A DNA stretch of 64,000 nucleotides from Patescibacteria group bacterium (GCA_041645165.1 JBAZQN010000005.1:19832-83831); one strand, 5' to 3'. Positions 5,011 to 56,474 are shown, counted from the first letter of the stretch. Program-made: numbers and translations. The notes: generated from the letters alone by a model not told the origin.

Positions 5011-5242
5011 TATACTCAATTGCTATTCAAATTCCGATTCCATCGTCATTCCCGCCCCGTATCACGGTACGGGGCAAACCATGGCCTCGCGCAGGCGGGG
5101 CTCCGGCGGGAATCCAGACGCCGTCCTCGACCGAGATCGGGGAACACCAAAAGAAAATCGATGTTTTGTTTGTTTTTTATGTCTGGATTCCAGATCTCGG
5201 TCTGGAATGACAATCGGAATTAGGTTAGCAAGTTAGTATAAT
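5011..5242 (+). mobile_element. MITE-like repeat, copy 1 (subfamily A)
   Basis: Shares termini tatactcaattgctattcaaattccgat... and ...tctggattccagatc.cggtctggaatgacaatcggaat.gggttggcaa.tagtataat with the copies at 43284-43492 and 56272-56474. It has internal GC hairpins and imperfect terminal inverted repeats (attccgatt...tcattcc / ggaatgacaatcggaat). Confidence 0.8.
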
Positions 5243-7453
5243 ATGATTTCTCGCACATTGCAGGTCGCGCAATTAAGGAAAGAATTTGAAGATGCGGTGG
5301 AGAGCGCCACGCCCGAAGAAGTGAAGAGGGGGCGTTTGTTTGATTTGGATCAGGAGGGTGAAATCCGCGTGACACTGACCAAGGACCTGGTTGAGCGACT
5401 AGGCTTGAAAGCGTGGCTCGCGAATTACCGCGAGGAAGCATCGCACTCCACCGGCGGCATCCGCGGCCCGCAAAATATCAAATATTGGTGGGATTGGCGC
5501 TTCCCGCTCAATGGGCTGGGGGTGGCGCTTGCCACCATAGCAAAAGCGCAGGTTGTGCGGCAGGATGTGGGCGCGCGCAAGATCAGGAAAATCCTCGGGG
5601 GAGAGGTGCGCTATAACACCGCCGCCTATATGGATCTGATTGCGCGAATTGAAGCGGCGCTCGACATCGAAGTGCATTGTGTCCCGGGCAGGAAGACCTT
5701 GCCCATTTGGCTCGCGTCATTCCTCACGTTTATGCTAGATTATGACGGAGGAGAGTATGTGACTTCCTCGCACGGCATTTCCAGCAAGATTGCGACCAAG
5801 GATTTGAACAATGAAGGAGGGCAATTCATGCCCGAGATATCCCTCCGGTTTGTGGATGAAATAGAACGCATCATTCATGAAGCTGAAACTGACCCTAAGG
5901 GCCTTACCATTACCTTGGCGCCGCGCAAAGACTCTCGCATTATTGAGGATGTGGAAGGGATTCCCGCGTACCTTGCATATTTGCGCACAAGCGTTGCCAC
6001 TCCTGAAAATATTGCACTTATTACGCAAGCGACCGGACAAGGATTTACCGCCCTGTTTGATTTTATCGGAGGTTGCATGCAGCGGACCATGGAGCCGCTC
6101 CTTGAGCAGCTTGGGGTGGCGGGCGCGTTCCGCTGGCATCATGGGGAGGAGGACCCTTTTTTCCATGGGGTGGGCAAAACACACAGGCTGAATCCGCAGA
6201 CAGGTAAAGAGGAGTATTATGATTACTCATGCGATACGACCCTCATGGACGTAGTGAAGACCTTGGGGTACGAAGAAACGCTCCGCGGCAAGCCTGTGGG
6301 ATTTCCCGTATTCATCACTGATCCGGACGGCGATCGGCTGGTGCTTGCAGAAGTGCAGGATGCGCAGAGGGTATCGGAATTGGATGAGCTCGGCATTGAT
6401 TATATTCCTTTAGATGCGGGGAAAGTCCTCGTCATCTTTATGCCCAACCAGTCTTTTTTCATGACGTTTGATTTCCATGCGCGAAGCTTAAAAGCTTCAG
6501 GGTGTTGGGGCGACCACGACCGATTTATGATAAAGACTACGCTTTCCGCGGCGTTCTGGGATGAATGGGCTGCAGTAAGCCGCGTGGCGGTGGTGAACGT
6601 CCCGGTGGGTTTCAAGGAAATATCCCATGTCATGAAAAAGGTGGAAGCGCAGTTACACACAAGCGCAGACCGACGCAGACTGAATACGCAGACCGACGCA
6701 GACGATATTCTAGTGCGCGATATATATGGGAAAACTATTAATCTTGGCAAAAATCCACGGCTGCTTTTTGGCGGCGAGGAAAGCGGCGGCATGATTATCG
6801 GCCCGGAAGAGCTGGTGGCAAGCCGTGCGGGCAGGCGGGCGATCGCCATGCGGGAGAAGAGCGCGGGAGAAGCGTCCATTATTACCGCAGCGCTCGCTAC
6901 TCATTTGTTTTTAGCGAAGAAGACTTTCTTGGATTATTATGTGAGCATTTTGGAAGAGTATCACATACGTTATCGCTATAATGTCCGCGGCCAAGTCGCT
7001 TATTACAATGAGAGCGAACCTGATCCGGTGAAGCTCATGAAGGCAAAACAGGGAGGCGAGCGGGTTCGGGACAAGAATGACACTTACTTTTTAACGCTAG
7101 CCGTAGCCAGAAAAGAAGGGCTCATCACCGTGGCGCACGCGCGTGAAATATTGAGTGAAGCCTTTCCGCATCTGCAGTTCCACAATTTGGTTGATGTGCG
7201 TTTTGTCGGGGACGGCACCATGATGGTGTTTGAAGACAAATCAATTGAGGTGCGCAAATCAGGCACGGATGCGAAAACGCGCGCCGCGGCATTTGGGGTT
7301 CATAGGGAAGAGTGCCAGCGCTACATGGACGCGTTCTTGCATTATCTCGGCGACATCACGCCCGCCTATGCGCGACTGATACCGGACGCGTATCGCGCGC
7401 AGGTTCCCCAAAAGGCAAAAGAATTGTATATGCAGTACTTGCGGGAGGATTAA
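5243..7453 (+). CDS. Alpha-D-phosphohexomutase superfamily protein (phosphoglucomutase/phosphomannomutase-like), unusually long
   Basis: All four family motifs are present: STGGIRG (cf. GTSGLRG), TSSHG (the active-Ser loop, cf. TASHNP), DPDGDR (metal loop) and GGEESGG (sugar loop). At 736 aa it is longer than typical PGMs. Confidence 0.6.
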   Translation: MISRTLQVAQLRKEFEDAVESATPEEVKRGRLFDLDQEGEIRVTLTKDLVERLGLKAWLANYREEASHSTGGIRGPQNIKYWWDWRFPLNGLGVALATIAKAQVVRQDVGARKIRKILGGEVRYNTAAYMDLIARIEAALDIEVHCVPGRKTLPIWLASFLTFMLDYDGGEYVTSSHGISSKIATKDLNNEGGQFMPEISLRFVDEIERIIHEAETDPKGLTITLAPRKDSRIIEDVEGIPAYLAYLRTSVATPENIALITQATGQGFTALFDFIGGCMQRTMEPLLEQLGVAGAFRWHHGEEDPFFHGVGKTHRLNPQTGKEEYYDYSCDTTLMDVVKTLGYEETLRGKPVGFPVFITDPDGDRLVLAEVQDAQRVSELDELGIDYIPLDAGKVLVIFMPNQSFFMTFDFHARSLKASGCWGDHDRFMIKTTLSAAFWDEWAAVSRVAVVNVPVGFKEISHVMKKVEAQLHTSADRRRLNTQTDADDILVRDIYGKTINLGKNPRLLFGGEESGGMIIGPEELVASRAGRRAIAMREKSAGEASIITAALATHLFLAKKTFLDYYVSILEEYHIRYRYNVRGQVAYYNESEPDPVKLMKAKQGGERVRDKNDTYFLTLAVARKEGLITVAHAREILSEAFPHLQFHNLVDVRFVGDGTMMVFEDKSIEVRKSGTDAKTRAAAFGVHREECQRYMDAFLHYLGDITPAYARLIPDAYRAQVPQKAKELYMQYLRED

Positions 7454-7475
7454 CAATATTTTCTGGTGTGTTGTT

Positions 7476-8963: not shown

Positions 8964-8991
8964 GAATATGAACAACTAAGACTAGAATTGT

Positions 8992-12480: not shown

Positions 12481-12556
12481 CGTCGGAGCTCGTCTCCGAC
12501 CTCATGGGTGGCAGACAAGCTGCCACGCTACAATTATTGTCTTAATTTAGGCGGGT

Positions 12557-17934: not shown

Positions 17935-18030
17935 CGGTTGCCGCCTTTCTTGCTGCGGAACTCGTCCCGCTTCGCGGGACTCAAACAGTCCTCACGGCGA
18001 AATGCGGCAACCCGCGGCTGGTCTATATTT
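17935..18030. repeat. Conserved ~95-nt intergenic element (copy A), possible structured RNA
   Basis: The core ttcttgctgcggaactcgtcccgcttcgcgggactcaaacagtcctcacggcgaaatgcggca is about 90% identical to 50200-50285. It contains hairpin GTCCCGC-TTC-GCGGGAC and copy A has an outer stem GCCGCGGTTGCCGC/GCGGCAACCCGCGGC. Confidence 0.55.
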
Positions 18031-35561: not shown

Positions 35562-35563
35562 TT

Positions 35564-36592
35564 ATGAAAAAATTACAACCTCAATCACAAATAATTATCT
35601 ATAAAGCAGAAACAGGCGAGACTAAAATCGATGTGCGTTTTGACGGTGAAACAGTGTGGTTAACGCAAAAACTTTTAGCTGAACTTTTTGGCGTTACTGT
35701 TCCTACTATCAATGAACATATTAAAAATGTTTACAAAGAAGGTGAATTAAAGGAAAGCTCAACTATTCGGAAATTCCTAATAGTTCAAAAAGAAGGCATT
35801 CGTGAAGTAGAAAGAGAGATTGATTTTTTTAATCTCGACATGATTATCTCTGTCGGTTACCGTATTAAAAGCTCTATCGCCACAGCTTTTCGTCAATGGG
35901 CAACTTTGCGACTACGCGAATATATTGTCAAGGGCTTTGTAATAGATGATGAACGATTAAAGAATCCCGATCTGCCATTTGATTATTTTGAAGAATTAAC
36001 TCGTCGTATCTCAGAAATACGCGCCTCAGAAAAGAGATTTTATAGAAAAATTACCGACATCTATGCCACCAGTGTTGACTATGACCCGACAGATGAGAAG
36101 AGTACCCTCTTTTTTAAAACAGTTCAAAACAAAGTTCATTATGCGATTACGGGAAGCACTGCGGCAGAGATAATCGCGAGCAGGGTGGATAGTAAAAAAA
36201 CAAATGTAGGCCTCACAAACTTCAGGGGCAGTAAGCCAACAAAAGAAGAAGTTTTGTTTGCCAAAAATTATTTGAGCGAGCAGGAACTTCTCGTTTTAAA
36301 TAATCTTGTCGAGCAATATCTCGTATTTGCCGAAGGACAGGCGATGCAGAGAGTGCCAATGTATATGAAGGACTGGATAGATAAACTCCACGGATTTTTA
36401 CAGATTAACAATAAAGATATTTTGAAAGATGCGGGCAAGGTCTCGCATGAGTTGGCAAAAGAGTTAGCTGAAAAAGAATATGATAAATATTACAAAAAAA
36501 GTTTAAAAGCGCCAAGCAAGGCGGACAGAGATTTTGAGGCATTCGCGAATAAAGCGATGAAACTTGTTAGCAAGGGTAAAAAGAAAAAATAA
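35564..36592 (+). CDS. rhuM: RhuM-family virulence/DNA-binding protein (typical Type I RM locus passenger)
   Basis: The N-terminal IIYKAETGETKIDVRFDGETVWLTQKLLAELFGVTVPTINEHIKNVYKEGEL pattern is characteristic of RhuM. Confidence 0.8.
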   Translation: MKKLQPQSQIIIYKAETGETKIDVRFDGETVWLTQKLLAELFGVTVPTINEHIKNVYKEGELKESSTIRKFLIVQKEGIREVEREIDFFNLDMIISVGYRIKSSIATAFRQWATLRLREYIVKGFVIDDERLKNPDLPFDYFEELTRRISEIRASEKRFYRKITDIYATSVDYDPTDEKSTLFFKTVQNKVHYAITGSTAAEIIASRVDSKKTNVGLTNFRGSKPTKEEVLFAKNYLSEQELLVLNNLVEQYLVFAEGQAMQRVPMYMKDWIDKLHGFLQINNKDILKDAGKVSHELAKELAEKEYDKYYKKSLKAPSKADRDFEAFANKAMKLVSKGKKKK

Positions 36593-36594
36593 TT

Positions 36595-39108: not shown

Positions 39109-39110
39109 TT

Positions 39111-41456: not shown

Positions 41457-41571
41457 TAAATTTGATGTCCCGCCGTCCGCTCGCCAAAAATTCTGTTTCG
41501 CTCCGCAGGAGCGATGATGTGGAAAGCGTTTCCGCCGTCTTGGTATCAAGACATCAAAGCAAAATAATCTT

Positions 41572-42093
41572 ATGCCAGATGATAATTTAACTACTGAATC
41601 ACCAGCGGCGGAGGTGCCGGTAGAGATGCCGGTGGTGCCAAACGAACCGATTCCGCCAGTCAAAATTCCACCTGTGACACCAAGCGAACCGGTGCCGGCA
41701 TCAGCGCCGCCGACAACGGAAGTGCCGGTTGAGGTTAGCCCCAGTGCCTCGGCAGTAGCTCCAACCGTTGTAACCTCGCCCACGCCGCCGCCCGCGCAAG
41801 CCGAACCAGCGCCTGCCATCGGGTTAGCGCCGGCCGTGAATTTAAAGTCATTGTTGGCGAAGGCCATGGAGACCATCAGATTCCGCAGAAATGCGAAGCT
41901 GGAAAAAATCATGAAATTTGTGGGCGAAAAAGGCTCTGTCACTAATGACCAGGCGCAAATGCTGCTCCGCATTTCCGATGCCACCGCAAGTCGCTATCTT
42001 TTGACGCTCACCCAACAGGGGCGTCTGCGGAGGACCGGCAAGACATCGGGCAGCCGCTATGAGTCGACAGTCGGCTCAAATGGAGGGAATTGA
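41572..42093 (+). CDS. Hypothetical Pro-rich protein with C-terminal winged-helix-like domain
   Basis: N-terminal PxxP-rich low complexity and a C-terminal KIMKFVGEKGSVTNDQAQMLLRISDATASRYLLTLTQQGRL. Confidence 0.4.
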   Translation: MPDDNLTTESPAAEVPVEMPVVPNEPIPPVKIPPVTPSEPVPASAPPTTEVPVEVSPSASAVAPTVVTSPTPPPAQAEPAPAIGLAPAVNLKSLLAKAMETIRFRRNAKLEKIMKFVGEKGSVTNDQAQMLLRISDATASRYLLTLTQQGRLRRTGKTSGSRYESTVGSNGGN

Positions 42094-42304
42094 GCCGATG
42101 GCGATGCAAGAATGAGCGATAGCCGTTATAAAAATTTGGTTTTATTCGGAGAATTGTACTCACATTATAGACATCACATTGAGAAATGGTACTCATCAGC
42201 AGTGTCATGGTGAGCTTGTCGAATCCATACACTGCGGACATCCTTCGACAGGCTCAGGATGACAGTACTACGTCATGATGTGATATCTATAAGCGCAAAA
42301 AATT

Positions 42305-42655
42305 ATGGGCATGGTTGAAAATTTTCGTACGCACGAAGCGTTTATCAAAAGAGAATTAAAACGCGCGCATAGCGACGCGGGGTGGCGGGATTTGTCGGAT
42401 TATCACCACACGCAAATTCAAAATTTCCAGCATGAGCGGCTGGTTCATTTGCTCGTGACCCTGACGTATGCCTTGGTCAATCTGATTGCCCTCGCGATCA
42501 CGCTCGCATTTCCCAGCATTGGCATAGTAATTTTGGACATTATCCTGCTCGTGATGCTCGCGTTTTATGTCTGGCATTATTTTGCTCTGGAAAACGGCAT
42601 TGCGCGGCTGTACCAATTGGACCAAAAAATTATCAAGAAATACCTGGATAGATAG
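42305..42655 (+). CDS. Small hypothetical membrane protein
   Basis: Two TM helices and no identifiable family. Confidence 0.35.
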   Translation: MGMVENFRTHEAFIKRELKRAHSDAGWRDLSDYHHTQIQNFQHERLVHLLVTLTYALVNLIALAITLAFPSIGIVILDIILLVMLAFYVWHYFALENGIARLYQLDQKIIKKYLDR

Positions 42656-42669
42656 CCATAAATCACTTT

Positions 42670-43209
42670 ATGCATTATCATCCCGCAGACACTGAAGGCG
42701 CGCCGCCGCAAGAAGAGATATATACGGGAAATGAAATTATCATCGCAAGCAAGCGGGAAAATGCAAAGATTATTATTGATGAAATTGAACAAAAAATGCA
42801 AGAGCTTGGATGGTTGGAGGATAACGTAAATATTTTTATCACAGCTTTAAGCGAAGCATTAAATAATGCGATCGTCCACGGCAATTTTGGATTGGCGCAG
42901 GCACAATTTTCTGATGATGAAAAATATAGCGATGCGATAAAAGAAGCTGAAGCAAAATGGGGTGAAGTAAAGAAAGTAATCATCACTATTGAAGACATGA
43001 GTTCTACTCATATATCAATGATGGTCACTGACGAAGGAAAAGGATTTAATCATGAAGCGTTGCTTGATCCTAGACAACCAGAAAACTTATTAAAGGAGAG
43101 CGGGCGCGGAGTGTTGATTATGCAAAAACTTGTGAAGGTAGAATATTTAGGTGACGGAAACAAGGTGCGTCTGGAATTGCCACGCGTGGCAGAGGAAACC
43201 GCTCGCTGA
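42670..43209 (+). CDS. GHKL/HATPase_c-domain protein (anti-sigma-factor / RsbW-like ATP-binding protein)
   Basis: N-box ALSEALNNAIVHGNF, then the G-boxes DEGKGF and GRGVLIM. Confidence 0.55.
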   Translation: MHYHPADTEGAPPQEEIYTGNEIIIASKRENAKIIIDEIEQKMQELGWLEDNVNIFITALSEALNNAIVHGNFGLAQAQFSDDEKYSDAIKEAEAKWGEVKKVIITIEDMSSTHISMMVTDEGKGFNHEALLDPRQPENLLKESGRGVLIMQKLVKVEYLGDGNKVRLELPRVAEETAR

Positions 43210-43283
43210 GATTTATTCTCTCATTGCCGCCAGAGGCGGACACAGCGTGCGCTTTGCCGCATGAGCAGAAAATTTATATTACT

Positions 43284-43492
43284 ATACTCGATTGCTATTC
43301 AAATTCCGATTCTATCGTCATTCCCGCCCCGTATCACGGTACGGGGCAGGCTCCAGCGGGAATCCAGACGCCGTCCTCGACCGAGATCGGGGAACACCAA
43401 AAGAAAATAGATTTTTTTGTTTGTTTTTTATGTCTGGATTCCAGATCAGGTCTGGAATGACAATCGGAACTGGGTTGGCAATGTAGTATAAT
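43284..43492 (+). mobile_element. MITE-like repeat, copy 2 (subfamily A)
   Basis: About 90% identical to 5011-5242. Its right end supplies TAGTATAAT 10 nt upstream of the methyltransferase ATG. Confidence 0.8.
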
Positions 43493-45089: not shown

Positions 45090-45155
45090 TTAAATTGCAG
45101 TAATTTTAATTCTCTCATTTGACTCCGTTATACCACGGGACAAGCATGCTGACCC

Positions 45156-45314
45156 AATTCCGATCGTCATTCCAGACTTGATCTGGAATCCAGAAACAAA
45201 AATAAACAAAAACCGATCGATTTTTATGTTTGTTTTGGTTTTCTAGATCCCGCATCTTAAGTGCGGGATGACGGTGAGGATCGGAATTTGAATAGCAATT
45301 GAGTATAACAAGCA
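45156..45314 (-). mobile_element. MITE-like repeat, copy 3 (subfamily B, inverted orientation)
   Basis: Same termini as copies 1, 2 and 5 but a different core (cgcacttaagatgcgggatctagaaaac...). A TTGACA-N17-ATAGGA promoter-like sequence abuts it at 45319-45347, facing the thrC-like gene. Confidence 0.7.
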
Positions 45315-45434
45315 TGCCTGTTGACAAGAGGTAGGTGGTTTGTATAGGATGAGAATAGTCTATGTACCATTGCACCAAGGTCAACGCCATCATTATCAGC
45401 ATTATACTTGTAAGCCCTTTCAAGAGGCCTTGAT

Positions 45435-47378
45435 GTGCATTCGAAATTAATGCGAAACGTCACGAGCCTCCACTCAAAGGGGCTCGATTTCATTTTAAGT
45501 TCTATGCCGCAATCAACGCCCAATGCACCGGACACGGCACTGCTTATGGATTGGCAGGCGCGTTGCCATGAGTGCGGCATGGAGTTTAGCCTGCACGAGG
45601 CGGTCCATCGCTGCCTCCATTGCAAGGGGCCGCTCAACCTTCTTTGCGATTATCAGGAGCTTGCGCGATTCATTAACCAGACTGACTGGAAAGAGTCAAA
45701 CCTGCGCTCCAGCAAATACTGGCGCGCGCTTCCTCTGGGGAATTTCACGCAGATCGTGACTCTGCAGGAAGGTGTCACGCCTTTGAAGCTCCTGTCGAAC
45801 CTTGGGGAGCGGCAGGGCATTAAGCGCTTGTGGGCGAAATTGGAGAGTGAGAACCCCACGGGATGTTTCAAGGATCGCGGGTCGCTTTTGGAAATTTCTT
45901 GGGCCGTGCAGCATGGGTATAAGGCAGTGGTGTGCGCATCCACCGGCAATATGGCCGGGTCGGTCGCGGCGTACGCGGCAAAAGCAGGACTTGAATGCTA
46001 CATTTTTGTGCCAGAGGGAGTGCCCATTGGCAAGCTTTCCATGATTATCGCGTATGGCGCGAAGCCTATTGCAGTCCGCGGAAGCTACAATGACTGTGTG
46101 CGGCTGGCAGAATATTTAGCGTCCGAGGAGGGTTACTTTCTCGCCGGGGATTATGCCCTGCGCGCAGAAGGGAGCAAGACGCAGGCCTATGAAATTATCG
46201 AACAGCTGCACTGGCAGGTGCCAGAGTGGGTGGCGGTGCCCATGGGGAACGGCACGAATCTTTCAGGGATCGCAAAAGGTTTCCAGGATCTTTTAGCGCT
46301 TGGCCTTATTGACCGCTTGCCGAAACTTCTTGGCGTACAGGCGGCGCAATCCTCGCCTATAGTTGAAGCATGGCAGAGGAATGAGGCGAAAGTCATAGCG
46401 TCTGAATCGCTCGCCCAGACCGTGGCGCAAGCGGCAAATGTGGGTAATCCTTTGGATGCCACGAAGGCCTTGAGCGCGATCAGGGAAAGCGGGGGACAGG
46501 CGGTCGCGGTGAGCGAGGAAGAGATTTTGTGCGCGCAGGAAGAATTAAGCAGGGCAGAATCAGTGTTCATAGAGCCGTCGTCCGCGCTTGTCTGGGCAGG
46601 GGTGAAGAAACTGAAAGAACAGGGAACAGTGAACAGTGATCAGAGTATCGTTTTGGTGCTGACAGGCCATGGCTTAAAAGATCCCAAGAGCGTGCTCGTG
46701 AGGGCGGTGGAACCGCCGGTTATCGCGCCCACCGTTGCCGCCTTGCAGGAATTATGGAAGGAGCGGCTGTATGCGCTCACAAAGGTGAGCAAGAGTGAAG
46801 GTATGAAAGTCCTGTGGGATGCGCACACTATCCCTACGGACCTTGGCGTGCGGGCGAAGAAGCTTTTCCATGTCGCGCTGGATAAGGCGCATGAGGAGCG
46901 GCTCGCAATTTCCGTCGCGCAGTTCCATGAGAAAATGCATGAGATGACGCTGCACAGTTTCAATCTCCTCCTTGAAGATGTGACCAAACTCCCGTACGAT
47001 TACCAAGAGATACTGCGGATTGCGGATTTCACCATCCAGGTTCCCCGGCACGCGATGCCGCGCGCCGAGGTAAGCGTGAAGCTCAACGGCGGAACGTACG
47101 AAGGTGAATATGAGGGCGTGGGGCCGGTTGACGCGGTCATTAAGGGCGCAGAAGAAGCGCTTGCCAAATCCCCGCACGGCATTCCCCATGCACTGGTGGA
47201 TTACGACGTGGAGATCGACCGCGGCGGCACCGACGCTATTGTCCGCGTGCACCTCGCGCTTGAGCACCCGAACGGCGCCAAGGTGACCGGCTCGGCGGTG
47301 TCGCCGGACGTCATCACCGCGTCCGTGGTGGCGTTTGAGAGAGCATATAATTTGTTGTATCAAAAGGTGACATCGTAA
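45435..47378 (+). CDS. Threonine-synthase-like PLP enzyme fused to a C-terminal LeuA-type allosteric (LeuA_dimer) regulatory domain
   Basis: N-terminal Zn-ribbon (CHECG..CLHCKG), ThrC PLP motif ENPTGCFKDRGS and a fold-type II core. The C-terminal ~200 aa align to the LeuA regulatory domain (GVGPVDAVIKGAEEAL; LVDYDVEIDRGGTDAIVRVHLALEHPNGAKVTGSAVSPDVITASVVAFERAYN vs E. coli LeuA ..[37 protein letters not shown]). Confidence 0.8.
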   Translation: MHSKLMRNVTSLHSKGLDFILSSMPQSTPNAPDTALLMDWQARCHECGMEFSLHEAVHRCLHCKGPLNLLCDYQELARFINQTDWKESNLRSSKYWRALPLGNFTQIVTLQEGVTPLKLLSNLGERQGIKRLWAKLESENPTGCFKDRGSLLEISWAVQHGYKAVVCASTGNMAGSVAAYAAKAGLECYIFVPEGVPIGKLSMIIAYGAKPIAVRGSYNDCVRLAEYLASEEGYFLAGDYALRAEGSKTQAYEIIEQLHWQVPEWVAVPMGNGTNLSGIAKGFQDLLALGLIDRLPKLLGVQAAQSSPIVEAWQRNEAKVIASESLAQTVAQAANVGNPLDATKALSAIRESGGQAVAVSEEEILCAQEELSRAESVFIEPSSALVWAGVKKLKEQGTVNSDQSIVLVLTGHGLKDPKSVLVRAVEPPVIAPTVAALQELWKERLYALTKVSKSEGMKVLWDAHTIPTDLGVRAKKLFHVALDKAHEERLAISVAQFHEKMHEMTLHSFNLLLEDVTKLPYDYQEILRIADFTIQVPRHAMPRAEVSVKLNGGTYEGEYEGVGPVDAVIKGAEEALAKSPHGIPHALVDYDVEIDRGGTDAIVRVHLALEHPNGAKVTGSAVSPDVITASVVAFERAYNLLYQKVTS

Positions 47379-47381
47379 GAT

Positions 47382-47491
47382 GTCATCCCCGCGAAGGCGG
47401 GGATCTAGAAAACAAAAATAAAAAATAGATCGATTTTGCTGTTTATTTTTTGTCTGGATTCCTGCCTGCGCAGGAATGACAATATTGAAGG
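47382..47491 (+). mobile_element. MITE-like repeat, copy 4 (subfamily B, left arm missing)
   Basis: gtcatccccgcgaaggcggggatctagaaaac...tgtctggattcc..caggaatgacaat matches the copy 3 core and right terminus. Confidence 0.65.
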
Positions 47492-47512
47492 TATTACTTT
47501 GTTATAAATACT

Positions 47513-48415
47513 ATGCAGCCTACCCAATTCATCTGGCTCAACGGTTCATTCGTCCCCTGGCAGGAGGCGAAAATCCACGTCCTCGCGCACGCGCTCCACT
47601 ATGGCACGGGCGTGTTCGAGGGAATCCGCACCTACGCCACGGCAAAGGGCCCTGCGGTTTTCCAGTTGGAGAAGCACCTGGAGCGCTTCCTCTACGGCGC
47701 CTCGTGTTTGCGCATGCAGGTTCCCTATACGAAAGAGCGGCTCGCAGAGGCGGTCGTGGCGACGATACGCAAAAACGACATTAAGGAATGTTACGTCCGC
47801 CCGATCATGTTTTACGGCTACGGCGAACTGCGCGTGAATCCCGCGGGCTGTCCGGTGGACGTCGCGATTGCGGTCTGGCCGTGGGGCGCCTATCTGGGAG
47901 AGGCGGCCATCACGGCGAAAGTGTCCAAGGTCATCCGCATCCACCCGCATTCGTCCGCGACCGATGCGAAGATCACCGGCCATTATGTCAATTCTATGCT
48001 CGCGGGGCTTGATGCCGTTGATGCCGGATACGGGGAAGCCATTCAGCTGGATTATGAAGGTAATATTGCCGAGGGCACGGGCGAGAATTTTTTCATGGTC
48101 AAAAACGGCGTGGTGGCGACCCCGCCGCTTGGCACTATCCTCGCGGGCATAACCCGCACTTCGGTCATCACCCTTGCCCGCGATTTGGGCTACACGGTGG
48201 AGGAGCGCCCTCTTTCCCTTGCGGAAGTGTTGAAGGCGGATGAGTGCTTTTTCACCGGCACTGCGACGGAGATCGCCGGCATCGGGAAGATTGACGACAC
48301 GGAGTTCAAAGACGCCCCAGGCCCGGTGACTAAGAGACTCACTGACGCGTTTAAGACCATCGTGAAAGCGGAAAACGAGAAGTATATGCATTGGCTTACC
48401 TTGGTGAATAAATAA
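47513..48415 (+). CDS. ilvE: Branched-chain-amino-acid aminotransferase
   Basis: 300 aa, fold type IV, with an IlvE-like N-terminus ([34 protein letters not shown]). Confidence 0.9.
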
Positions 48416-48419
48416 TTCT

Positions 48420-50138
48420 ATGTCAGCTTCCTCATTGAAACACCACAGCCAGCTTATGACCGGTTCTCCCGGCACTGCCGACTGGCCCAAAAGGGCCGCG
48501 GCGCGGGCCATGCTAAGGGCGGTGGGTTTTAAGGATCAGGATTTTGAGAAACCCATCATCACGGTCGCCTGTCCCTACACCAACGCCACGCCGTGCAATG
48601 ACCACGTGGACAAGCTCGGGCGTGTTGTGGTTGAGGAAGTGGAAAAGATAGGCGGCAAGCCGTTTATTTTCGGCACGCCGGTGGTAAGCGACGGTGAGAG
48701 CATGGGTACGGAAGGTATGAAGTATTCGCTCGTGTCGCGCGAATGGATTGCGGACAACATAGAAATCATGCAGGAGTCATACATGGCAGACGGCGCGATT
48801 ACCTTGTCAGGATGCGATAAGACGATTCCCGGCGCGCTGATGCCTTTGGCGCGCAACAACAGCATTGGCCTCACGCTCTACGGCGGTTCGATTCACCCCG
48901 GCAGACTGGGTGATAAAGACCTCACCATTGTGAGCTCGTTCGAAGCGATTGGCGCCCATGCGGCGGGGAAGATAAGCGACGAAGAGCTCCACCAGATAGA
49001 ATGCCATTCTTGCCCCGGGGCAGGATCCTGCGGCGGCATGTTTACGGCGAATACCATGGCGTCATCCATCGAGGCGCTTGGCATGTCCATTCCCGGCTCC
49101 TCATCCAATCTCGCCGTGGACAGGCACAACCAAGTGTCTGAGGACAAGCGGAACGACTGCAAAAAAACAGTCACGGCGCTCTTTCATCTTCTTGAGCGGG
49201 GCATCCGCGTTCGTGACATCATGACTAGGCAAGCGTTTGAGAATGCCATTGTCGTGGTGATGGCGCTGGGCGGGTCTACCAACGCCGTGCTCCATTATCT
49301 AGCCCTCGCGCATGAGGCGGGCGTGGAGCTCACGCTTGATGATTTCTCGCGCGTGGCCGCGCGGGTGCCGCTCCTCGGAAATTTTTCGCCTTTTGGGAAA
49401 TATGTGATGGAAGATTTGCACAATATCGGCGGCATCCCCATGGTGATGAAACACCTCTTGCAGTACGGCCTTTTGCATGGCGATTGCATGACGGTGACTG
49501 GCAGGACCGTGGCGGAGAATCTAAAAGACGCGCCGGACTACCCCGAAGGACAGGATATAGTCGCGCGCGTGGATCAGCCGTGTGCGCCGCCGGACCACCA
49601 CATCGTTATCCTCCGCGGCAATCTCGCGCCTGAAGGGGCGGTGATGAAGCTCTCGGGGAAAGGTGTGATGGCGCACAAGGGGCCTGCGCGGATATTCGAG
49701 CGGGAAGAAGATGCGCTTGATGCGATCCTGGAAGGCAGGGTAAAAAAAGGCGACGTGATGGTTATTCGTTTCGAAGGCCCGAAAGGCGGCCCGGGCATGA
49801 GAGAAATGCTTTCTCCCTCTTCCGCGCTCATGGGTGCGGGATTGGGGAAGGAGGTCGCGCTCATCACGGACGGGCGTTTTTCCGGCGGCACGCACGGCAT
49901 CATGGTGGGGCACATCACGCCGGAAGCGCAGACAGGCGGCCCGATTGCGTTCCTCAAAGAAGGGGACATGATTGACATAGACGTCCAAAGACGAGAAATA
50001 AATGTTGAGATAAGCGAAGAGGAAATGCGCGCACGCGCAGCAGTGTGGAAAGCGCCCGCACTGAAATATCAGCGAGGGGTGCTGTGGAAATACGCCACGC
50101 TCGTGGGAAGCGCATCGAGAGGGGCCGTGACAAGTTAG
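48420..50138 (+). CDS. ilvD: Dihydroxy-acid dehydratase
   Basis: 572 aa, IlvD/EDD family ([31 protein letters not shown]). Confidence 0.95.
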
Positions 50139-50199
50139 ACGTGCGTTTATTCGTTGGGAAAACACGTTTCTTTAAGATTCCAACCATATTAGTGTATTA

Positions 50200-50290
50200 T
50201 TCTGCTCGGTCGCACCCCAGTTCTTGTTGCGGAACTCGTCCCGCTCCGCGGGACTCAAACAGTCCTCACTGCGAACTGTGGCACCCCCTC
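50200..50290. repeat. Conserved ~95-nt intergenic element (copy B)
   Basis: See copy A at 17935-18030. It lies in the same orientation, immediately after the ilvD stop. Confidence 0.55.
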
Positions 50291-50324
50291 GCTTTAGGAA
50301 AAGGAGGGAAAGGAGAAAAAATGT

Positions 50325-50780
50325 ATGAACTATGTATCCGCCGAAGGAAGGCAGGGAAGGGTAATGGTAGCTCGGTTTAAGCCCGGACAGGATTTGCGTG
50401 ACGCATTGAATGCTTTTTGCCTTGAGAAGGGGATAAAAGCCGGCTATATTCCGGTACTCTTAGGAGGATTCAAGAATCTCAAGGTGAATGCGATGGCGCA
50501 AGGAGAGGAGGATGACCAACCGCGCACTGTCTTGCGCGAGTACCGCGAGCCTCTGGAATATTTCGGCTGCGGCACGGTTGCATTTGCGGACGGCAAGCCT
50601 TCGATCCATATCCACCTTACTGCGGCGCAAGGGAACCACAACGCGGTCGGAGGGCATCTCGTATCCGGAGAGATCGTCTTTCTAACAGAAGTAGTTATCG
50701 TGGAGGTTGAGGGCATTGTCATGACGCGCCAGAGTGATCCCGAAGTTTTCAATATGCCCCTTTTGCATTTTTCCCATTGA
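50325..50780 (+). CDS. PPC-domain (DUF296) protein
   Basis: GRVMVARFKPGQDL..IKAGYIPVLLGGF..HIHLTAAQGNHNAVGGHLVSGEIVFLTEVVIVE resembles the PPC/DUF296 fold. The start may be at an internal Met. Confidence 0.5.
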   Translation: MNYVSAEGRQGRVMVARFKPGQDLRDALNAFCLEKGIKAGYIPVLLGGFKNLKVNAMAQGEEDDQPRTVLREYREPLEYFGCGTVAFADGKPSIHIHLTAAQGNHNAVGGHLVSGEIVFLTEVVIVEVEGIVMTRQSDPEVFNMPLLHFSH

Positions 50781-50909
50781 TCCCGTTGATAATAAATGAG
50801 ACATGGTTTAATATGAGATGTCCTTTAATCCATAATTCAATTATTTATACAGTTTATATACAACGGGGTTGACATAAAAACCCGGCGGGAGTAGCCTTAG
50901 AATATACCT

Positions 50910-50966
50910 ATGCAAAGTACCGCAACCAATCAGATTTTTAGCGTTGTTATCCTTATCCAGCCGTGA
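50910..50966 (+). promoter_or_regulatory. Candidate ilv leader peptide MQSTATNQIFSVVILIQP (6 of 8 consecutive residues I/V/L)
   Basis: 18-codon ORF read directly. It sits 36 nt upstream of a terminator hairpin and 310 nt upstream of ilvC, which fits branched-chain-amino-acid attenuation. Confidence 0.5.
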
Positions 50967-51002
50967 GGGTGGCCGCTTGCGTATACGCAATACCGTCGCA
51001 GA

Positions 51003-51027
51003 GGCCGCCCGAAAGCGGCCATTTTTT
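51003..51027 (+). terminator. Rho-independent terminator / attenuator hairpin in the ilvC leader
   Basis: GGCCGC-CCGAAA-GCGGCC followed by ATTTTTT. Confidence 0.6.
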
Positions 51028-51276
51028 ATACCAAATAATGGATCGCAGCAATTTTAGGTTTCACGCGTATGTACGCAGAAGCCGTCCGCGTCACCTTTAG
51101 TAATATTTGGCGTTTAGTGCGTATGCGGACGGACGCAGACCCGCCTGCCTACGCCTATGGTCGGGTACGAACGAGAGTAAGGTTATGCATCTAAAGTCAC
51201 AGGTGTATCTCATTCATGAATAGAGGCTATGGCGGGCAGGTCAACGCAGATATGTATTATTTTTTATTTTACTACT

Positions 51277-52326
51277 ATGAAGATTGATTTCGGCGGCGTT
51301 ACGGAAGACGTTGTGACCAGGGATGAATTCCCTTTATCGCGCGCGCAGGAAGCATTAAAGGATGAGACCATCGCGGTGCTTGGCTACGGCGTGCAAGGGC
51401 CGGGGCAATCCCTCAATATGCGCGATCAAGGCTTTCGCGTCATTGTGGGCCAGCGGAAGGGTACGGATTCGTGGGATAAGGCGGTGAATGATGGATGGAA
51501 GCCGGGTGAAACGTTGTTTGAGTTGGACGAGGCCGCTGCGCGCGGCACCATTATCCAATATTTGCTCTCTGACGCGGGGCAGAAGCAGTACTGGCCTGCC
51601 TTGAAGCCGCATCTTACGAAGGGTAAGGCGCTCTGTTTTTCGCATGGATTTTCCATTGTGTACAAAGACCAGACCCGCGTGGTGCCGCCCGCCTGTGTGG
51701 ATGTCATTCTGGTCGCGCCAAAAGGGTCAGGTACGTCCGTGCGCAGGAATTTTTTAAAAGGCAGCGGGATAAACGCGAGCTTTGCGGTGTTTCAGGATGC
51801 GACAGGCCATGCGCGCGACCGCGCGATTGCCTGCGGTATTGCAGTCGGTTCCGGTTTTCTCTTCCCCACCACGTTTGAGAACGAGGTATGGAGCGACTTG
51901 ACCGGCGAGCGGGGTGTGCTCATGGGTGCGCTTGCGGGCATTATGGAGGCGCAGTACAACCTCCTCCGCGCCAAGGGTCATTCGCCCTCTGAAGCGTTCA
52001 ATGAAACCGTGGAAGAAGCTACACAAAGCCTCATCCCTTTGATTGCAGAAAAAGGTATGGACTGGATGTATGCAAACTGTTCGACGACTGCCCAGCGCGG
52101 CGCGCTTGACTGGCGGCATAAGTTCCGCAAGGCAGTGGAGCCGGTGTTCGAAGAGCTCTACAAAAGAGTGAAAGAAGGGAAGGAAACGGAAATCGTGCTT
52201 AAGGCAAACAGCGATCCGCACTACCGCGAGAATTTGAAGAAAGAATTGGACGAAATGAAAAATTCCGAAATGTGGCAAGCAGGCGCGGCGGTGCGCGGAT
52301 TGCGTCCCGAAAACTGGAAAAAGTAG
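51277..52326 (+). CDS. ilvC: Ketol-acid reductoisomerase (class I)
   Basis: IAVLGYGVQGPGQSLNMRDQGF Rossmann N-terminus and a KARI C-terminal knotted domain. The start is set at MKIDFGG (the ORF track begins 48 nt upstream). Confidence 0.9.
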   Translation: MKIDFGGVTEDVVTRDEFPLSRAQEALKDETIAVLGYGVQGPGQSLNMRDQGFRVIVGQRKGTDSWDKAVNDGWKPGETLFELDEAAARGTIIQYLLSDAGQKQYWPALKPHLTKGKALCFSHGFSIVYKDQTRVVPPACVDVILVAPKGSGTSVRRNFLKGSGINASFAVFQDATGHARDRAIACGIAVGSGFLFPTTFENEVWSDLTGERGVLMGALAGIMEAQYNLLRAKGHSPSEAFNETVEEATQSLIPLIAEKGMDWMYANCSTTAQRGALDWRHKFRKAVEPVFEELYKRVKEGKETEIVLKANSDPHYRENLKKELDEMKNSEMWQAGAAVRGLRPENWKK

Positions 52327-52383
52327 AAGCCAGTGTACGCCATCACTATGCCAGTATACGCCGCTTAGTGAGGAGTTTAATTT

Positions 52384-52743
52384 ATGAATAACCACATAAA
52401 ACCCATCGGCCCATATTCAACCGCACGGCGTGCAGGCGATCTCCTTTTCTGTTCCGGACAGATCGGGATTGATGGGTCAGGTGCGCTCGTCGCCGGCGGT
52501 ATTGCGTCGGAGACGCGGCAGGCGTTTGAAAATCTTAAAGAGGCGCTGCGCGAGGAAGGCTTCACTCTTCAGGACGTGGTGAAGGCCACCGTATACCTGA
52601 AGGATATGAACGAGTTTGCGGCGATGAACGCGGTGTATCAGGAATATTTTAATCCTCCGTATCCAGCGCGCGCGACCATACAGGTCGCGGCGCTTCCGAA
52701 AGGCGCGTGTATAGAAATTGAAGCAGTGGCAGTAAAGGGTTAG
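52384..52743 (+). CDS. ridA: RidA/YjgF-family reactive-intermediate (enamine/imine) deaminase
   Basis: 119 aa, PIGPYSTARRAGDLLFCSGQIG...ATVYLKDMNEF..R..A..A. Confidence 0.85.
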   Translation: MNNHIKPIGPYSTARRAGDLLFCSGQIGIDGSGALVAGGIASETRQAFENLKEALREEGFTLQDVVKATVYLKDMNEFAAMNAVYQEYFNPPYPARATIQVAALPKGACIEIEAVAVKG

Positions 52744-52761
52744 GTAATAAAATCATTCATT

Positions 52762-54516
52762 ATGTTATTAACAGGAGGCGAGATATTACTCAAAACTTTA
52801 GTAGACCTCGGCGTCGACGTGATGTGGGGCATGCCTGGGGGCGTGGTGCTGCCCTTGTATGACCATTTTGCGAAATACCCACAGCTTAAACACATCCTTA
52901 TCCGCCATGAACAAGGAGGGGCGTTTGCCGCCGATGGTTATGCGCGGGTGACCGGGAACGTGGGGGTATGCTTGGGCACCTCGGGTCCGGGATCCACAAA
53001 CCTTGTAACAGGGATTGCGGGCGCGTTCATGGATTCCATTCCTTTGCTCGCAATCACCGGGCAGGTTGCCTCGCCTCTGATCGGTTCTGACGCGTTTCAA
53101 GAGGTGGATTCCATAGGCATTACGGTGTCGATCGTGAAACACAGCTTTTTGGCGCAAAGGGCGGAAGACGTGGCAGACATAATCACGACCGCCTATTATC
53201 TTGCCGGGTCCGGCCGCCCAGGGCCGGTGCATGTGGATGTGACTAAGGATGCGCTCATGAACAAAGTTGAGTACCAAAAGGGAATAGTTTTAGCGCTGCC
53301 GGGTTACCGCATCCCGCATATGGACGATCCCGAGATGCGCTCAGCGGTGAAACAGCTTGAAACATTATTAGAAAATCCTGATGCGCGCCCCTTAATCCTT
53401 GCTGGGCACGGGGTGGAGCTTGGCGGGGCGGAAAAGGAACTCTTGGCATTTGCGGAAAAATTGCAGATTCCAGTGGCCAATACGCTCTTGGGAACAGGCG
53501 TATTTCCGCAAGGGCATCCTCTGTATCTGGGATCGGTGGGCATGCACGGCACGGCGCTTGCGAACAAGACGCTGGCAGAATCAAATGTAGTGATCGGCAT
53601 AGGGATGCGCTGGGACGACCGCGTGACAGGCGATTTGAAAAGCTTCAAGAGCGGCAGGCAATTTGTCCATTTCGAGATAGACCCGTCCGAGGTTGGCAAA
53701 ATTATAACTCCCGCAGTAGCTTTCATGGGCAACGTGAAGGATACGCTCTCATCCGCCGTGAGGGAGATGCAAACGCGCGCGTGGCCGAAGTGGCGGCGCT
53801 CCATTGAAGAGTGGAAAGCCGCTTGGCCGCCATTCGCCCTTCCTTATCCGCAAGCTGAAGACGGTCCCATTTCCCAGCCGTGGGCGATCAGCCTGCTTTC
53901 GGAAATGACAAAGGGCGAAGACATCGTGGCATCAGACGTAGGCCGCCATCAGATGTGGGTGATGCGCTATTACCGGTTCCGCCATTCGCACTCGCACATT
54001 TCGCACGGAGGCTTAGGCGCGATGGGATTCGGCGTGCCCGCGGCCATGGGCGCGAAATTTGGCGCGCCGGGGAGGCGCGTGTGGGCAGTGAGCGGCGACG
54101 GCAGCTTTCAGATCAATATCCAAGAACTCGCGACGATTGCGGAAAACAAAGTCGAGGTAAAAATGGTGCTGATGAACGACGGATCGCTGGGTATGGTGCG
54201 GCAGTGGCAGGAGCTTTTCTACGGCTCGAACCTTTCTGCAAGCACTTTTTCAGGGAATCCCGATTTCGTGCGCGTGGCAGAAGCGTATGCCATTCCCGCG
54301 CGGCGCGTGGAGAAAGCTGCGGATTTGCGGCAGGCGTTTGAGTGGGCTATGCAGACTCCCGGGCCGGTCCTTGTTGAGGTGCGGGTTGACCCGCAGGAGC
54401 ACGTCTACCCCATGGTGCCGGCAGGCAAGGGAGTGCATGAGCAGATCATTGTTGACCCTCGACGGGCATTACATGCGGAATCGCACTTGAAATTAAGCGC
54501 GTCAACGAGCGATTAA
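52762..54516 (+). CDS. ilvB: Acetolactate synthase large subunit
   Basis: 584 aa ThDP enzyme (GGAFAADGYARVTG.., GSDAFQEVD, the ThDP-binding GDGSF...N...LG motif). Confidence 0.9.
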   Translation: MLLTGGEILLKTLVDLGVDVMWGMPGGVVLPLYDHFAKYPQLKHILIRHEQGGAFAADGYARVTGNVGVCLGTSGPGSTNLVTGIAGAFMDSIPLLAITGQVASPLIGSDAFQEVDSIGITVSIVKHSFLAQRAEDVADIITTAYYLAGSGRPGPVHVDVTKDALMNKVEYQKGIVLALPGYRIPHMDDPEMRSAVKQLETLLENPDARPLILAGHGVELGGAEKELLAFAEKLQIPVANTLLGTGVFPQGHPLYLGSVGMHGTALANKTLAESNVVIGIGMRWDDRVTGDLKSFKSGRQFVHFEIDPSEVGKIITPAVAFMGNVKDTLSSAVREMQTRAWPKWRRSIEEWKAAWPPFALPYPQAEDGPISQPWAISLLSEMTKGEDIVASDVGRHQMWVMRYYRFRHSHSHISHGGLGAMGFGVPAAMGAKFGAPGRRVWAVSGDGSFQINIQELATIAENKVEVKMVLMNDGSLGMVRQWQELFYGSNLSASTFSGNPDFVRVAEAYAIPARRVEKAADLRQAFEWAMQTPGPVLVEVRVDPQEHVYPMVPAGKGVHEQIIVDPRRALHAESHLKLSASTSD

Positions 54517-54680
54517 ATTAAAATACAAATCTCAAAATGTCACCGCTTTGCGGGATCCCGCTTACCATTGAATACCATCATTAAGGTGCGGGACAGAATG
54601 ACAAACCAAAATTTATAAATTTTACATTTTCATTTTGATTTTTGATATTTGATTTTTGCATTATTTGAATAAGTAAAGTT

Positions 54681-54938
54681 ATGCAATACAATGAGTTCCA
54701 TTTCAAGATTACCCTCGAAGCCATGAATCACGTGGGCGTGATGACGCGCATAACAAATGTGCTGCGAAAGTTCAGCCTGAATATTTATGAATTCAGCGGC
54801 AAGACGCACCCCGAAGACCCAGAGCGCTTTACAATGTATCTTTGGGTAGCAGGCCCCAGAGAAAACTGCGATTATATTTTCAAGAAATTGGAAAAGATTA
54901 TCGATGTGGTGAAGATTGAGTGGAAGGGAGTGAAGTAA
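54681..54938 (+). CDS. ilvN: Acetolactate synthase small (regulatory) subunit, short ACT-only form
   Basis: 85-aa ACT-like domain (NHVGVMTRITNVLRKFSLNIYEFS) immediately after ilvB. Confidence 0.55.
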   Translation: MQYNEFHFKITLEAMNHVGVMTRITNVLRKFSLNIYEFSGKTHPEDPERFTMYLWVAGPRENCDYIFKKLEKIIDVVKIEWKGVK

Positions 54939-55055
54939 ATATGATACCAATATACGAATGTATTCGAATGATGCGAATCACTGCGAATTCGTAGGTATTA
55001 GCCTGCCTGCGCAGGCAGGTATCATTAGTATTAATTAGTTGATTAGTATCATACT

Positions 55056-56246
55056 ATGTTGAAACCCATTCGACCTTTTAGTAAGCGCATAACTAAAATT
55101 GAAGTGTCCGCCATCAAGCAGATGGCGCTGAAGGCTACGGAATACAAGAACGTGGTATCGTTCGGCTGGGGCGTGCCGTCGTTTCGGACAAAAGAGGAGA
55201 TACGGGACGCGGTGCGTGACGCGTTTCAGAATGATCCTCATCTGGATAAATATGCGCCCGTGTCGGGACTTACCAGCTTGCGCGAAAAGATCGCGCGCAC
55301 CTGGCCGAAGCGCTATGGGTTTGAGATCTCGCCAAAAGAAGTGCTCGTGTCTGCGGGCGCTATGGAGGCGATGATGGGATTGATGATGGTGCTTTTCGAT
55401 CCCGGAGACGAGGTGCTCGTGATGGACCCGGGATTCGCGTCGCACATCGAAGAAATGGAAGTGACCGGCCTTGTTCCTTCTTATGTCCATCTGGACGAAT
55501 CAAAGGGATGGGGATTGACGGAGCGCGCGCTTGAGAAAGCAATTTCCAAAAAAAGCAGAGGGATTATCATTATCAATCCCAACAATCCCACCGGCCATGT
55601 ATATGCGCGTGCAGATATTGAGTTAATAGCGCGTTTCGCCGTGCAGCACCATTTGTGGCTTATCGTAGATGAACCTTACGAATACCTGGTATTCGACGGG
55701 AAAAAATTATTCCATCCCCTGCTGATCCCAGAAGCGCGGAATAATGTGATTGCGGTGCACTCTTTTTCCAAGAAATTCGCCATGACCGGCTGGCGCGTGG
55801 GATACTTCGTGGGATCGGAGGAGTTGGTAAAAGAATTCATGAAATTCCACGACAATACGATTGTGAGTGCACCGCGCATTTCCCAAATCGCAGCGCTCGC
55901 CGCGCTAGATATCCCGGACAGCGCGTTTGCGGATGAATTAAAAGAAATGCACGCGCGCAGAGACCTGATCTGCCAATGGCTCGACAGGATGCCGGATCTC
56001 TTCACCTATGTGCGCCCCACTGGCGCGTATTACATTTTTCCGAAAATAATCGCGCCGGGGTTGGATGACGTGACGCTCGCGGAACGCCTCCTGAATGAGG
56101 TGCAGGTCGTGACCACGCCGGGCTCTGCTTTCGGGCCTGTGGGCCAAAATCACCTGCGTCTCACTTTCAGCGGCACGAGAGAAGAAATCAGTGAAGGGAT
56201 GGAGAGGATATCAAAATGGTGGGAAGCGGAAAAAAAGAGAAAATAA
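55056..56246 (+). CDS. Class I/II PLP-dependent aminotransferase (aspartate/aromatic family)
   Basis: NPNNPTGHVY and the PLP-Lys motif SFSKKFAMTGWRVGY. Confidence 0.8.
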   Translation: MLKPIRPFSKRITKIEVSAIKQMALKATEYKNVVSFGWGVPSFRTKEEIRDAVRDAFQNDPHLDKYAPVSGLTSLREKIARTWPKRYGFEISPKEVLVSAGAMEAMMGLMMVLFDPGDEVLVMDPGFASHIEEMEVTGLVPSYVHLDESKGWGLTERALEKAISKKSRGIIIINPNNPTGHVYARADIELIARFAVQHHLWLIVDEPYEYLVFDGKKLFHPLLIPEARNNVIAVHSFSKKFAMTGWRVGYFVGSEELVKEFMKFHDNTIVSAPRISQIAALAALDIPDSAFADELKEMHARRDLICQWLDRMPDLFTYVRPTGAYYIFPKIIAPGLDDVTLAERLLNEVQVVTTPGSAFGPVGQNHLRLTFSGTREEISEGMERISKWWEAEKKRK

Positions 56247-56271
56247 AACGGATTTACGCGGATTATACTCA

Positions 56272-56474
56272 ATTGCTATTCAATTCCGATTCCATCGTCA
56301 TCCCCGCCCCGTATCAAGGTACGGGGCAAGCTCCAGCGGGAATCCAGACGCCGTCCTCGACCGAGATCGGGGAAAACCAAAAGAAAATTGATCTTTTTGT
56401 TTGTTTTATGTCTGGATTCCAGATCCCGGTCTGGAATGACAATCGGAATTGGGTTGGCAAATTAGTATATTATA
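56272..56474 (+). mobile_element. MITE-like repeat, copy 5 (subfamily A)
   Basis: About 90% identical to copies 1 and 2. It lies between the convergent aminotransferase and leuB genes. Confidence 0.8.

Follow-up and report, generated by a model that had tools for sequence, protein, structure and literature searches.

The DNA stretch analysed here (the window) comprises 64,000 nt of a Patescibacteria group bacterium (GCA_041645165.1 JBAZQN010000005.1:19832-83831), and it carries a family of short repeat elements among housekeeping genes (glyA, RNase J, uvrC, uvrA and the full ilv/leu cluster). An earlier note on this DNA had listed five copies of a family resembling miniature inverted-repeat transposable elements (MITEs). 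The five copies exist, at the listed coordinates or a few bases off, and their similarity is far above chance: the 43283 copy is 92% identical to the 56264 copy over 209 nt (BLASTN, E 6e-81), and 85% identical to the 5011 copy over 237 nt (E 5e-76). Three of them are full copies bounded by terminal inverted repeats (TIRs), one is inverted and shorter, and one is a bare core (Table 1). A sixth, minimal copy was missing from the earlier list. The elements are a known type of hairpin repeat in a new package and in a new bacterial lineage, the Candidate Phyla Radiation (CPR).

Table 1. Copies of the repeat element in the window, with their modules. TIR-L and TIR-R, left and right terminal inverted repeats; unit, hairpin unit.
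Feature	Position	Strand	Length	Modules
Full TIR-bounded composite copy	5011-5240	+	230 nt	TIR-L 5011-5038; unit(+) 5045-5117, containing nested hairpins plus an additional module of 22 nt; A/T-rich spacer; unit(-) 5183-5211; TIR-R 5213-5240
Minimal hairpin pair, no TIRs	37838-37902	+		unit(+) 37838-37865; unit(-) 37876-37902
Full TIR-bounded composite copy	43283-43490	+	208 nt	unit(+) 43317-43367; unit(-) 43434-43461
Inverted shorter copy	45140/45150-45307	-		TIR-L intact 45280-45307; right terminus diverged or truncated; canonical unit(-) 45243-45272, of the Ssn-related motif type; unit(+) 45166-45193
Bare hairpin pair, no TIRs	47382-47480	+		unit(+) 47382-47408; palindromic A/T-rich spacer; unit(-) 47454-47480
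Full TIR-bounded composite copy	56264-56469	+	206 nt	unit(+) 56297-56347; unit(-) 56412-56440
Unit variants of the elements				GTCATTCCAGACTTGATCTGGAATCCAG; GTCATCCCCGCGAAGGCGGGGATCTAG; long-loop unit

The limits of the elements were set where the copies cease to resemble one another, using the window and related contigs, and the ends are fixed at TATACT...AGTATA. The start reported before for one copy (56272) was 8 nt too far right and was refined to 56264; the other limits were close. The imperfect TIRs described in the earlier note are indeed present: they are 28 nt long, and 22 of the 28 positions are complementary in the 56264 copy. This TIR is found in four of the six copies and is missing in the 47382 and 37838 copies. 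The 15-mer TCTGGATTCCAGATC and the 17-mer GGAATGACAATCGGAAT occur four times each at 0-1 mismatch, confined to the four TIR-bearing copies; at up to three mismatches, 14 and 4 matches were obtained, respectively, versus shuffle means of 1.5 and 0.29. The TIR-bearing copies are 160-230 nt long (~100-230 bp for the family overall), and no open reading frame (ORF) is conserved among the copies. The entire element folds into a long single-strand hairpin, with z = -5.9 and -6.6. The modules, a 22-nt CCTCGCGCAGGCGGGG-type insert and a GCCGTCCTCGACCGAGATCGGGGAA hairpin, occur in all four presence/absence combinations among the copies. Thus, the element is a mosaic.

The family is mobile now or was so recently. 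Scanning a genome collection with the ilvA-like protein yielded a single relative with shared synteny (L003, 'Patescibacteria group bacterium MAG041'), which aligns to positions 45315-58710 of the window at ~77% nucleotide identity. In the window, the 206-nt element at 56264 lies between the stop codons of two convergent genes, an aminotransferase gene (stop at 56246) and leuB (stop at 56470-56472), and both frames are intact. In the relative, the two stop codons abut (TAG|TTA) with zero nt between them. This orthologous site is precisely empty. Next to the 45140-45307 copy, the two sequences become homologous again 8 nt past the end of the element, where a conserved TTGACA promoter lies. The intergenic DNA at the 47382 site is unrelated in the relative.

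A JGI metagenome scan with the 30-nt inner palindrome of the element gave 39 loci. In nine of them, full or partial TIR-bounded copies, 81-96% identical, were found in unrelated flanks; these include L010, L012, L027, L011, L018 and L041. The 43283 copy is 93-96% identical to the copies in L010 and L027, whose flanks differ from its own. In three loci, one element is present with swapped flanks (the flanks are given letters): L011 6964-7168 (A|B), L041 4439-4643 (A|C) and L018 6705-6909 (D|B). The A|B arrangement was found in one metagenome, and A|C together with D|B in another; the swap arose either because copies recombined with one another or because the assembly is chimeric. The 5011 copy is located at a synteny break relative to L011, where two neighbouring genes are also missing, so that L011 was counted as neither empty nor filled at this site. 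The short-read contigs of Logan break off inside the element, as expected of a multi-copy repeat.

These results decide against the weakest alternative, that the copies are ancient conserved regulatory sequence or an assembly artefact, which is now hardly credible: the copies fill whole intergenic spacers, and the swapped flanks of the three loci could come from chimeric assembly, but the 56264 copy is precisely absent from a relative (two other sites there have no element and divergent flanks), independent assemblies in ENA and Logan contain the same window sequence, and the copies are not collapsed duplicates because they differ by 4-15%. The earlier note had named presence at orthologous positions in relatives as the observation that would speak against mobile DNA. 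The opposite was observed, since the 56264 site is empty in L003 and copies sit in unrelated flanks elsewhere, and conserved regulatory DNA is refuted. The earlier description of a dispersed, non-coding, TIR-bounded mobile family is thus borne out.

Each copy holds exactly one convergent pair of hairpin units, and the spacer between the units is usually A/T-rich and palindromic. The frame of the unit is (Y)GTC-AT(T/C)CC-variable stem-loop-stem-GG(A/G)AT-C-(C/T)AG. The window was scanned for this frame together with a complementary 8-nt stem, and the result was compared with 100 shuffles. Twelve units were found versus a shuffle mean of 0.33, and all 12 are arranged as six convergent (+)(-) pairs. 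The two core subtypes distinguished earlier do not hold as distinct types. The former 'core B' is the canonical left-hand unit, and 'core A' is the left-hand unit with nested hairpins in the loop; both are variants of one hairpin unit similar to the Neisseria Transformation Sequence (NTS) and the Ssn-related motif (SRM). The internal CTGGATTCCAG..TCTGGAATGAC palindrome is the second unit of the pair, right-hand and inverted.

The NTS is CGTCATTCCCGCGMAVGCGGGAATCYRG, and the SRM is the broader motif (PMC11893778, Nat Commun 2025). Ssn, found in Neisseria and Wolbachia, is a small (~94 aa) single-domain GIY-YIG nuclease, which binds and cuts a single-stranded motif a few bases 5' of a hairpin; cleavage is governed by the three bases on the 5' side of the palindrome and binding by the C next to its 3' side (PMC11893778). 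In the same study, Wolbachia and Rickettsia are among the SRM-rich genomes, the ssn gene is typically arranged SRM(+)-ssn-SRM(-), CPR/Patescibacteria are not mentioned in the main text, and how the NTS/SRM repeats multiply is left open by the authors (PMC11893778). All 22 distinct units collected here have GTC on the 5' side of the stem and C directly on its 3' side. The stem cells are 99% paired, but the units were selected for pairing, and thus only the diversity of the stems is informative. Compensating stem changes were observed in five of eight pairs across the fetched loci, with the frame conserved. The degenerate SRM pattern (PMC11893778) gives three matches in the window versus 0.16 in shuffles, two of the three within the copies listed earlier. 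With the 28-mer NTS consensus of Neisseria, three sites were found at up to three mismatches (0 in 100 shuffles), and one site, 37880-37899, is an exact dRS3 match. Judged by its sequence, the hairpin unit of the elements is the NTS/SRM.

A further likeness was found in Rfam. In E-value mode, the segment 47360-47499 aligns to positions 1-151 of the model RF02625 WsnRNA46 with 47.1 bits (E 5.5e-8), a score below the gathering score of 65.3. The segment 45148-45291 gives 24.6 bits, and the remaining copies give at most 25 bits or no match. At the gathering thresholds, no Rfam match was detected anywhere in the window. The model consensus of WsnRNA46 itself consists of two inverted SRM-type hairpins around an A/U-rich spacer.

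The unit is also linked to ssn-like genes. In Pseudomonadati, the number of such motifs goes along with the presence of ssn. In three of the 39 loci, which were fetched by the unit alone, a ~94-aa GIY-YIG gene adjoins a hairpin unit (L042, L015 and L033). A 28-nt unit identical to window 45166-45193 is located upstream of the ssn-like start codon, at 2 nt in L042 and at ~50 nt in L015, and in both loci an inverted unit directly follows the ssn-like stop codon. In a Patescibacteria contig (L043), the order is SRM(+)-ssn-SRM(-)-SRM(+)-SRM(-) between uvrB and dnaG (gene product P0155). The gene for an identical protein (P0196) has varying neighbours and is embedded in unit arrays that reach a density of 12 units per 2 kb. 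The ssn-like proteins have 94-95 aa and were assigned by the Pfam GIY-YIG match alone; against NCBIfam and PDB sequences, they gave generic GIY-YIG/UPF0213 matches only.

Unit arrays were seen in other organisms. In L057-L066, dense arrays of units in the same orientation surround an ssn gene, and the unit number varies between samples. In L028 (2157-2278), a head-to-tail unit array has a 46-nt period and identical spacers.

We consider it probable that the elements are MITE-like mosaics of Ssn-related hairpin pairs in lineage-specific TIRs, which have spread in an Uhrbacteria-like Patescibacteria lineage. The hairpin pair would be the gene-less counterpart of the SRM(+)-ssn-SRM(-) cassette; because the ssn genes lie in the order SRM(+)-gene-SRM(-), the gene-less pair shares the orientation logic of the cassette. 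In this lineage, the pair is wrapped in the 28-nt TIR, and the whole 160-230-nt unit would be copied to new sites. A cognate Ssn may be encoded by this host, and the hairpins may act on single-stranded DNA during uptake, replication or repair. The mobilizing enzyme may be Ssn or an unseen transposase that recognizes the TIRs.

Several observations weigh against this reading. According to tblastn with an ssn-like query, no ssn-like gene is present in the 64-kb window or in the available flanks of the Uhrbacteria-like contigs; the sequence recovered beyond the window consists of two short Logan contigs (L051 and L052). The commonest unit (stem ATTCCAGA) and the long-loop unit fail the published SRM regular expression, and the canonical variants alone pass it. 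The copied unit ends at the TIRs, 33 nt outside the hairpins, and not at the reported cut site of Ssn. Thus, cleavage by Ssn is not sufficient to account for where the elements end. Only one site is cleanly empty in L003; at the two further sites compared, the flanks have diverged and confound the comparison. The flanking repeats are missing or weak in most copies, and the TIRs with the possible 10-bp flanking repeats favour a conventional transposase at least as much.

The main rival explanation is that an ordinary transposase moves the elements by their TIRs. In this case, the element would be a classical MITE that arose from an insertion sequence (IS) by internal deletion; a transposase encoded elsewhere would recognize the 28-nt TIRs and generate a ~10-bp (or TA) target duplication, and the hairpins would be cargo or later nested insertions. 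This is possible, though not probable. The boundaries lie exactly at the TIRs in all full copies, and the degree of complementarity of the TIRs and the size and non-coding character of the elements fit such an origin, as do the four module combinations, which suggest nested insertions. The flanking sequences were compared as 10-mers for ten copies. A perfect 10-bp direct repeat, ACAAGCATGC, was read directly from the sequence at 45140-45149 and 45309-45318, on both sides of the inverted copy. The flanks of the copies L012b and L027 match at 8/10 each, the flanks of the 56264 copy (TTACGCGGAT and TTATACAGAT) match at 7/10 after re-alignment in codon register, and the six others match at 4-6/10. 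Among 90 mismatched flank pairs, the maximum was 7/10, which three of the ten copies exceed (8-10). The element termini start with TA, like those of TA-duplicating families, and a TA duplication is indistinguishable from the TIR ends. As another candidate, TACGCGGA flanking the 56264 copy was considered as an 8-bp target duplication and was rejected; the relative natively has the ACGCGGATA motif three times.

The conventional origin is weakened by the failure to find its enzyme. No transposase with these TIRs was detected in the window, in viral contigs or in the fetched loci (~300 kb), and a 20-mer that runs from the right unit into the right TIR had 0 exact matches in 185,579 species-representative genomes. 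In two scans of viral contigs, the TIR pattern gave chance coding-sequence matches only, and the hairpin unit gave none. Moreover, the 47382 and 37838 copies have the same core without TIRs and are also absent from relatives, and unrelated organisms have pairs of this architecture that lack these TIRs.

It is rather doubtful that the Ssn proteins are themselves the enzymes of a transposition system based on single-stranded DNA, in which the SRM pair would be a REPIN-like non-autonomous element and SRM(+)-ssn-SRM(-) would be the autonomous form. If this is true, the TIR-bounded copies, the clean empty site and the ~10-bp flanking repeats would be the first visible insertion footprints of a previously unrecognized system. 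In Pfam scans of ~30 larger ORFs of the window, no RAYT was found, and no other RAYT search was made.

A role at the level of RNA or transcription is quite improbable. In this explanation, the elements would donate a -10 box, provide a stabilizing or terminating 3' hairpin, or encode a small RNA like Wolbachia WsnRNA-46. TAGTATAAT ends 2 and 12 nt ahead of ATG 5243 and ATG 43503, respectively, the copies L010b and L012a likewise abut start codons, and short leaders are plausible in a host without Shine-Dalgarno sequences. Two copies begin 3-17 nt past stop codons, and the bare pair matches WsnRNA46 (E ~1e-8). However, a consensus scan detected no outward sigma-70-like promoter in any copy, and a terminator scan likewise gave no hairpin-plus-T-run. 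In the 5011 copy, the best -35-like hexamer is 24 nt from TATAAT 5237-5242, and this TATAAT abuts the ATG and is too near to serve it. For the ilvA-like gene, the promoter is at 45321-45350, beyond the element, and it is conserved in L003, which has the same operon without elements. The promoter donation proposed in the earlier note is therefore not supported, and what is left of it is a lone -10-like hexamer. Nor is its bidirectional terminator between convergent genes supported, since no hairpin followed by a T-run was found in the 56264 copy. In addition, one copy is inside a coding sequence, the copies are found in both orientations relative to genes, the Rfam score is under the family threshold, and SsnA is inactive on RNA (PMC11893778). 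The adjacency to start codons may simply reflect where insertions are tolerated, because the spacers are near zero and there is no Shine-Dalgarno requirement. Effects on neighbours (a 3' transcript hairpin or a -10-like end) would be secondary, if any.

The earlier note had emphasized that the elements are inserted precisely at gene boundaries. This location is real: the right end of the 5011 copy is 2 nt before ATG 5243, and the 47382 copy begins 3 nt past the stop codon of the ilvA-like gene. As evidence it is weak, because the spacers are tiny (zero nt between the two stops in L003) and any tolerated insertion abuts genes; one copy, moreover, is inside a gene. The 37838-37902 copy lies in frame within the HsdM-S fusion gene (36595-39108) and is translated as ..SSCHSVLDTESIKKELDSRFHGND... 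It adds ~14 extra residues (..CHSVLDTESIKKELDSRFHGND..) to a variable linker of HsdM-S and reads ..LDSRFHGND... This segment is missing in eight homologues, which are up to 84% identical. The gene belongs to a low-GC (36-42%) island at 33057-43209, which encodes HsdR, RhuM, the HsdM-S fusion, an AAA_13 ATPase and a protein with a histidine-kinase-like ATPase domain. The 43283 copy lies at the right edge of this type I restriction-modification (R-M) island.

The window belongs to a metagenome-assembled contig of 89 kb, and the window sequence is also found in ENA ERZ27249422 and Logan SRR8449827. The serine hydroxymethyltransferase encoded here matches an NCBI protein from a 'Patescibacteria group bacterium' metagenome-assembled genome at 100% identity and one from Candidatus Uhrbacteria RIFCSPHIGHO2_12_FULL_54_23 at 81%, and the next named matches are all from CPR. 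The window genes have no Shine-Dalgarno sequences, and the intergenic spacers are very short. A/T-rich sequence precedes the genes, in many cases with a TA..T hexamer a few bases ahead of the ATG. These features suggest short-leader or leaderless initiation in this host.

Several other features of the window were recorded. The ilv/leu biosynthesis cluster on this CPR/Patescibacteria contig is complete (45435-61145). CPR bacteria are generally described as being without amino-acid biosynthesis, and the cluster is thus unusual. Within it, 45435-47378 encodes a fusion of a PALP domain of the threonine-dehydratase type with a LeuA allosteric domain. A two-hairpin motif (GTCGGAGCT.G.CTCCGAC ... TGGCAGA.AA.CTGCCACGCTACAAT) is present at 12481-12534(+), 57588-57640(-) and 61154-61200(-), in each case 20-40 nt upstream of a gene start; the genes include leuB and a leuA-like gene, and the motif could be a shared operator or leader of leu genes. 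A second small repeat family was observed at 17947-18013 and 50221-50287. These repeats are 67 nt long, 91% identical, form a GTCCCGCTTCGCGGGAC hairpin and are intergenic, one adjoining RNase J and the other lying after ilvD. Tandem repeats with a 7-nt period (CATGGAA / CATATAT / CATAGAA) are located at 913-976 and 1579-1705, just upstream of two minus-strand gene starts, and similar heptad-like repeats flank the elements in L010 and L027. A 201-nt direct duplication (20847-21047 / 22263-22463, 95% identical) is contained within a single UvrC frame of 825 aa, which is unusually long.

The elements can be compared with several known systems. In common with the NTS/SRM and Ssn system, they have the frame CGTCAT-TCCC-stem-loop-stem-GGGAAT-C-YRG, the critical bases and the strong enrichment (PMC11893778), and an identical unit flanks 94-aa GIY-YIG genes elsewhere in the SRM(+)-gene-SRM(-) order. 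They differ in the CPR host, in the convergent pairs with an A/T-rich palindromic spacer, in the 28-nt TIR on four of six copies, in the copy placed in frame inside a gene, and in that ssn is found neither in the window nor in related loci. Like the dRS3 repeats and NIMEs of Neisseria, they are intergenic mosaics of short modules near variable regions, bounded by inverted repeats of the ATTCCC-N8-GGGAAT type; in contrast, the stem of most units here is ATTCC(A/T/G) or ATCCC instead of ATTCCC, and the phylum is another one. We know of no Neisseria counterpart of the outer TATACT...AGTATA repeats. WsnRNA46 has the same pair of inverted SRM-type hairpins around an A/U-rich spacer, with a full-length alignment of 47360-47499, but the score is below gathering, and WsnRNA46 is a Wolbachia small RNA whereas the present elements are known at the DNA level alone.

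In the case of REPINs and RAYT, two inverted short palindromic units likewise form a larger hairpin, which is non-coding and dispersed and is linked to a single-copy gene for a small nuclease specific for single-stranded DNA hairpins; this analogy was drawn in the discussion of PMC11893778. The protein linked to the present unit is, however, a GIY-YIG nuclease and not an HUH enzyme of the IS200/IS605 type. The REP head is of the GTAG type, and the head of the present unit is GTCAT. Classical MITEs, such as Correia elements, share the size class, the TIRs, the TA-starting termini, the non-coding character and the many copies beside genes. In the present family, no parent IS was found, and the flanking repeats hint at a target duplication but are not consistent between copies; to our knowledge, the termini of Correia elements have no sequence similarity to those of these elements. 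The in-frame insertion into a protein-coding gene is reminiscent of the Rickettsia palindromic elements.

Repeats of the NTS/dRS3 type have been known in Neisseria for more than two decades, and CPR cells have tiny genomes and are thought to depend on DNA uptake. The partner enzyme of the NTS, Ssn, was described in 2025 (PMC11893778). In our literature search, no paper was found on such repeats in CPR bacteria. In practice, the repeats break short-read CPR assemblies, and translated repeats yield spurious 'hypothetical proteins'. The elements offer discrete and sharply bounded copies, a clean comparison of a filled and an empty site, candidate target duplications and an in-frame insertion in an R-M gene. 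Together, these features make the mobility question testable, and the Neisseria data give them less easily.

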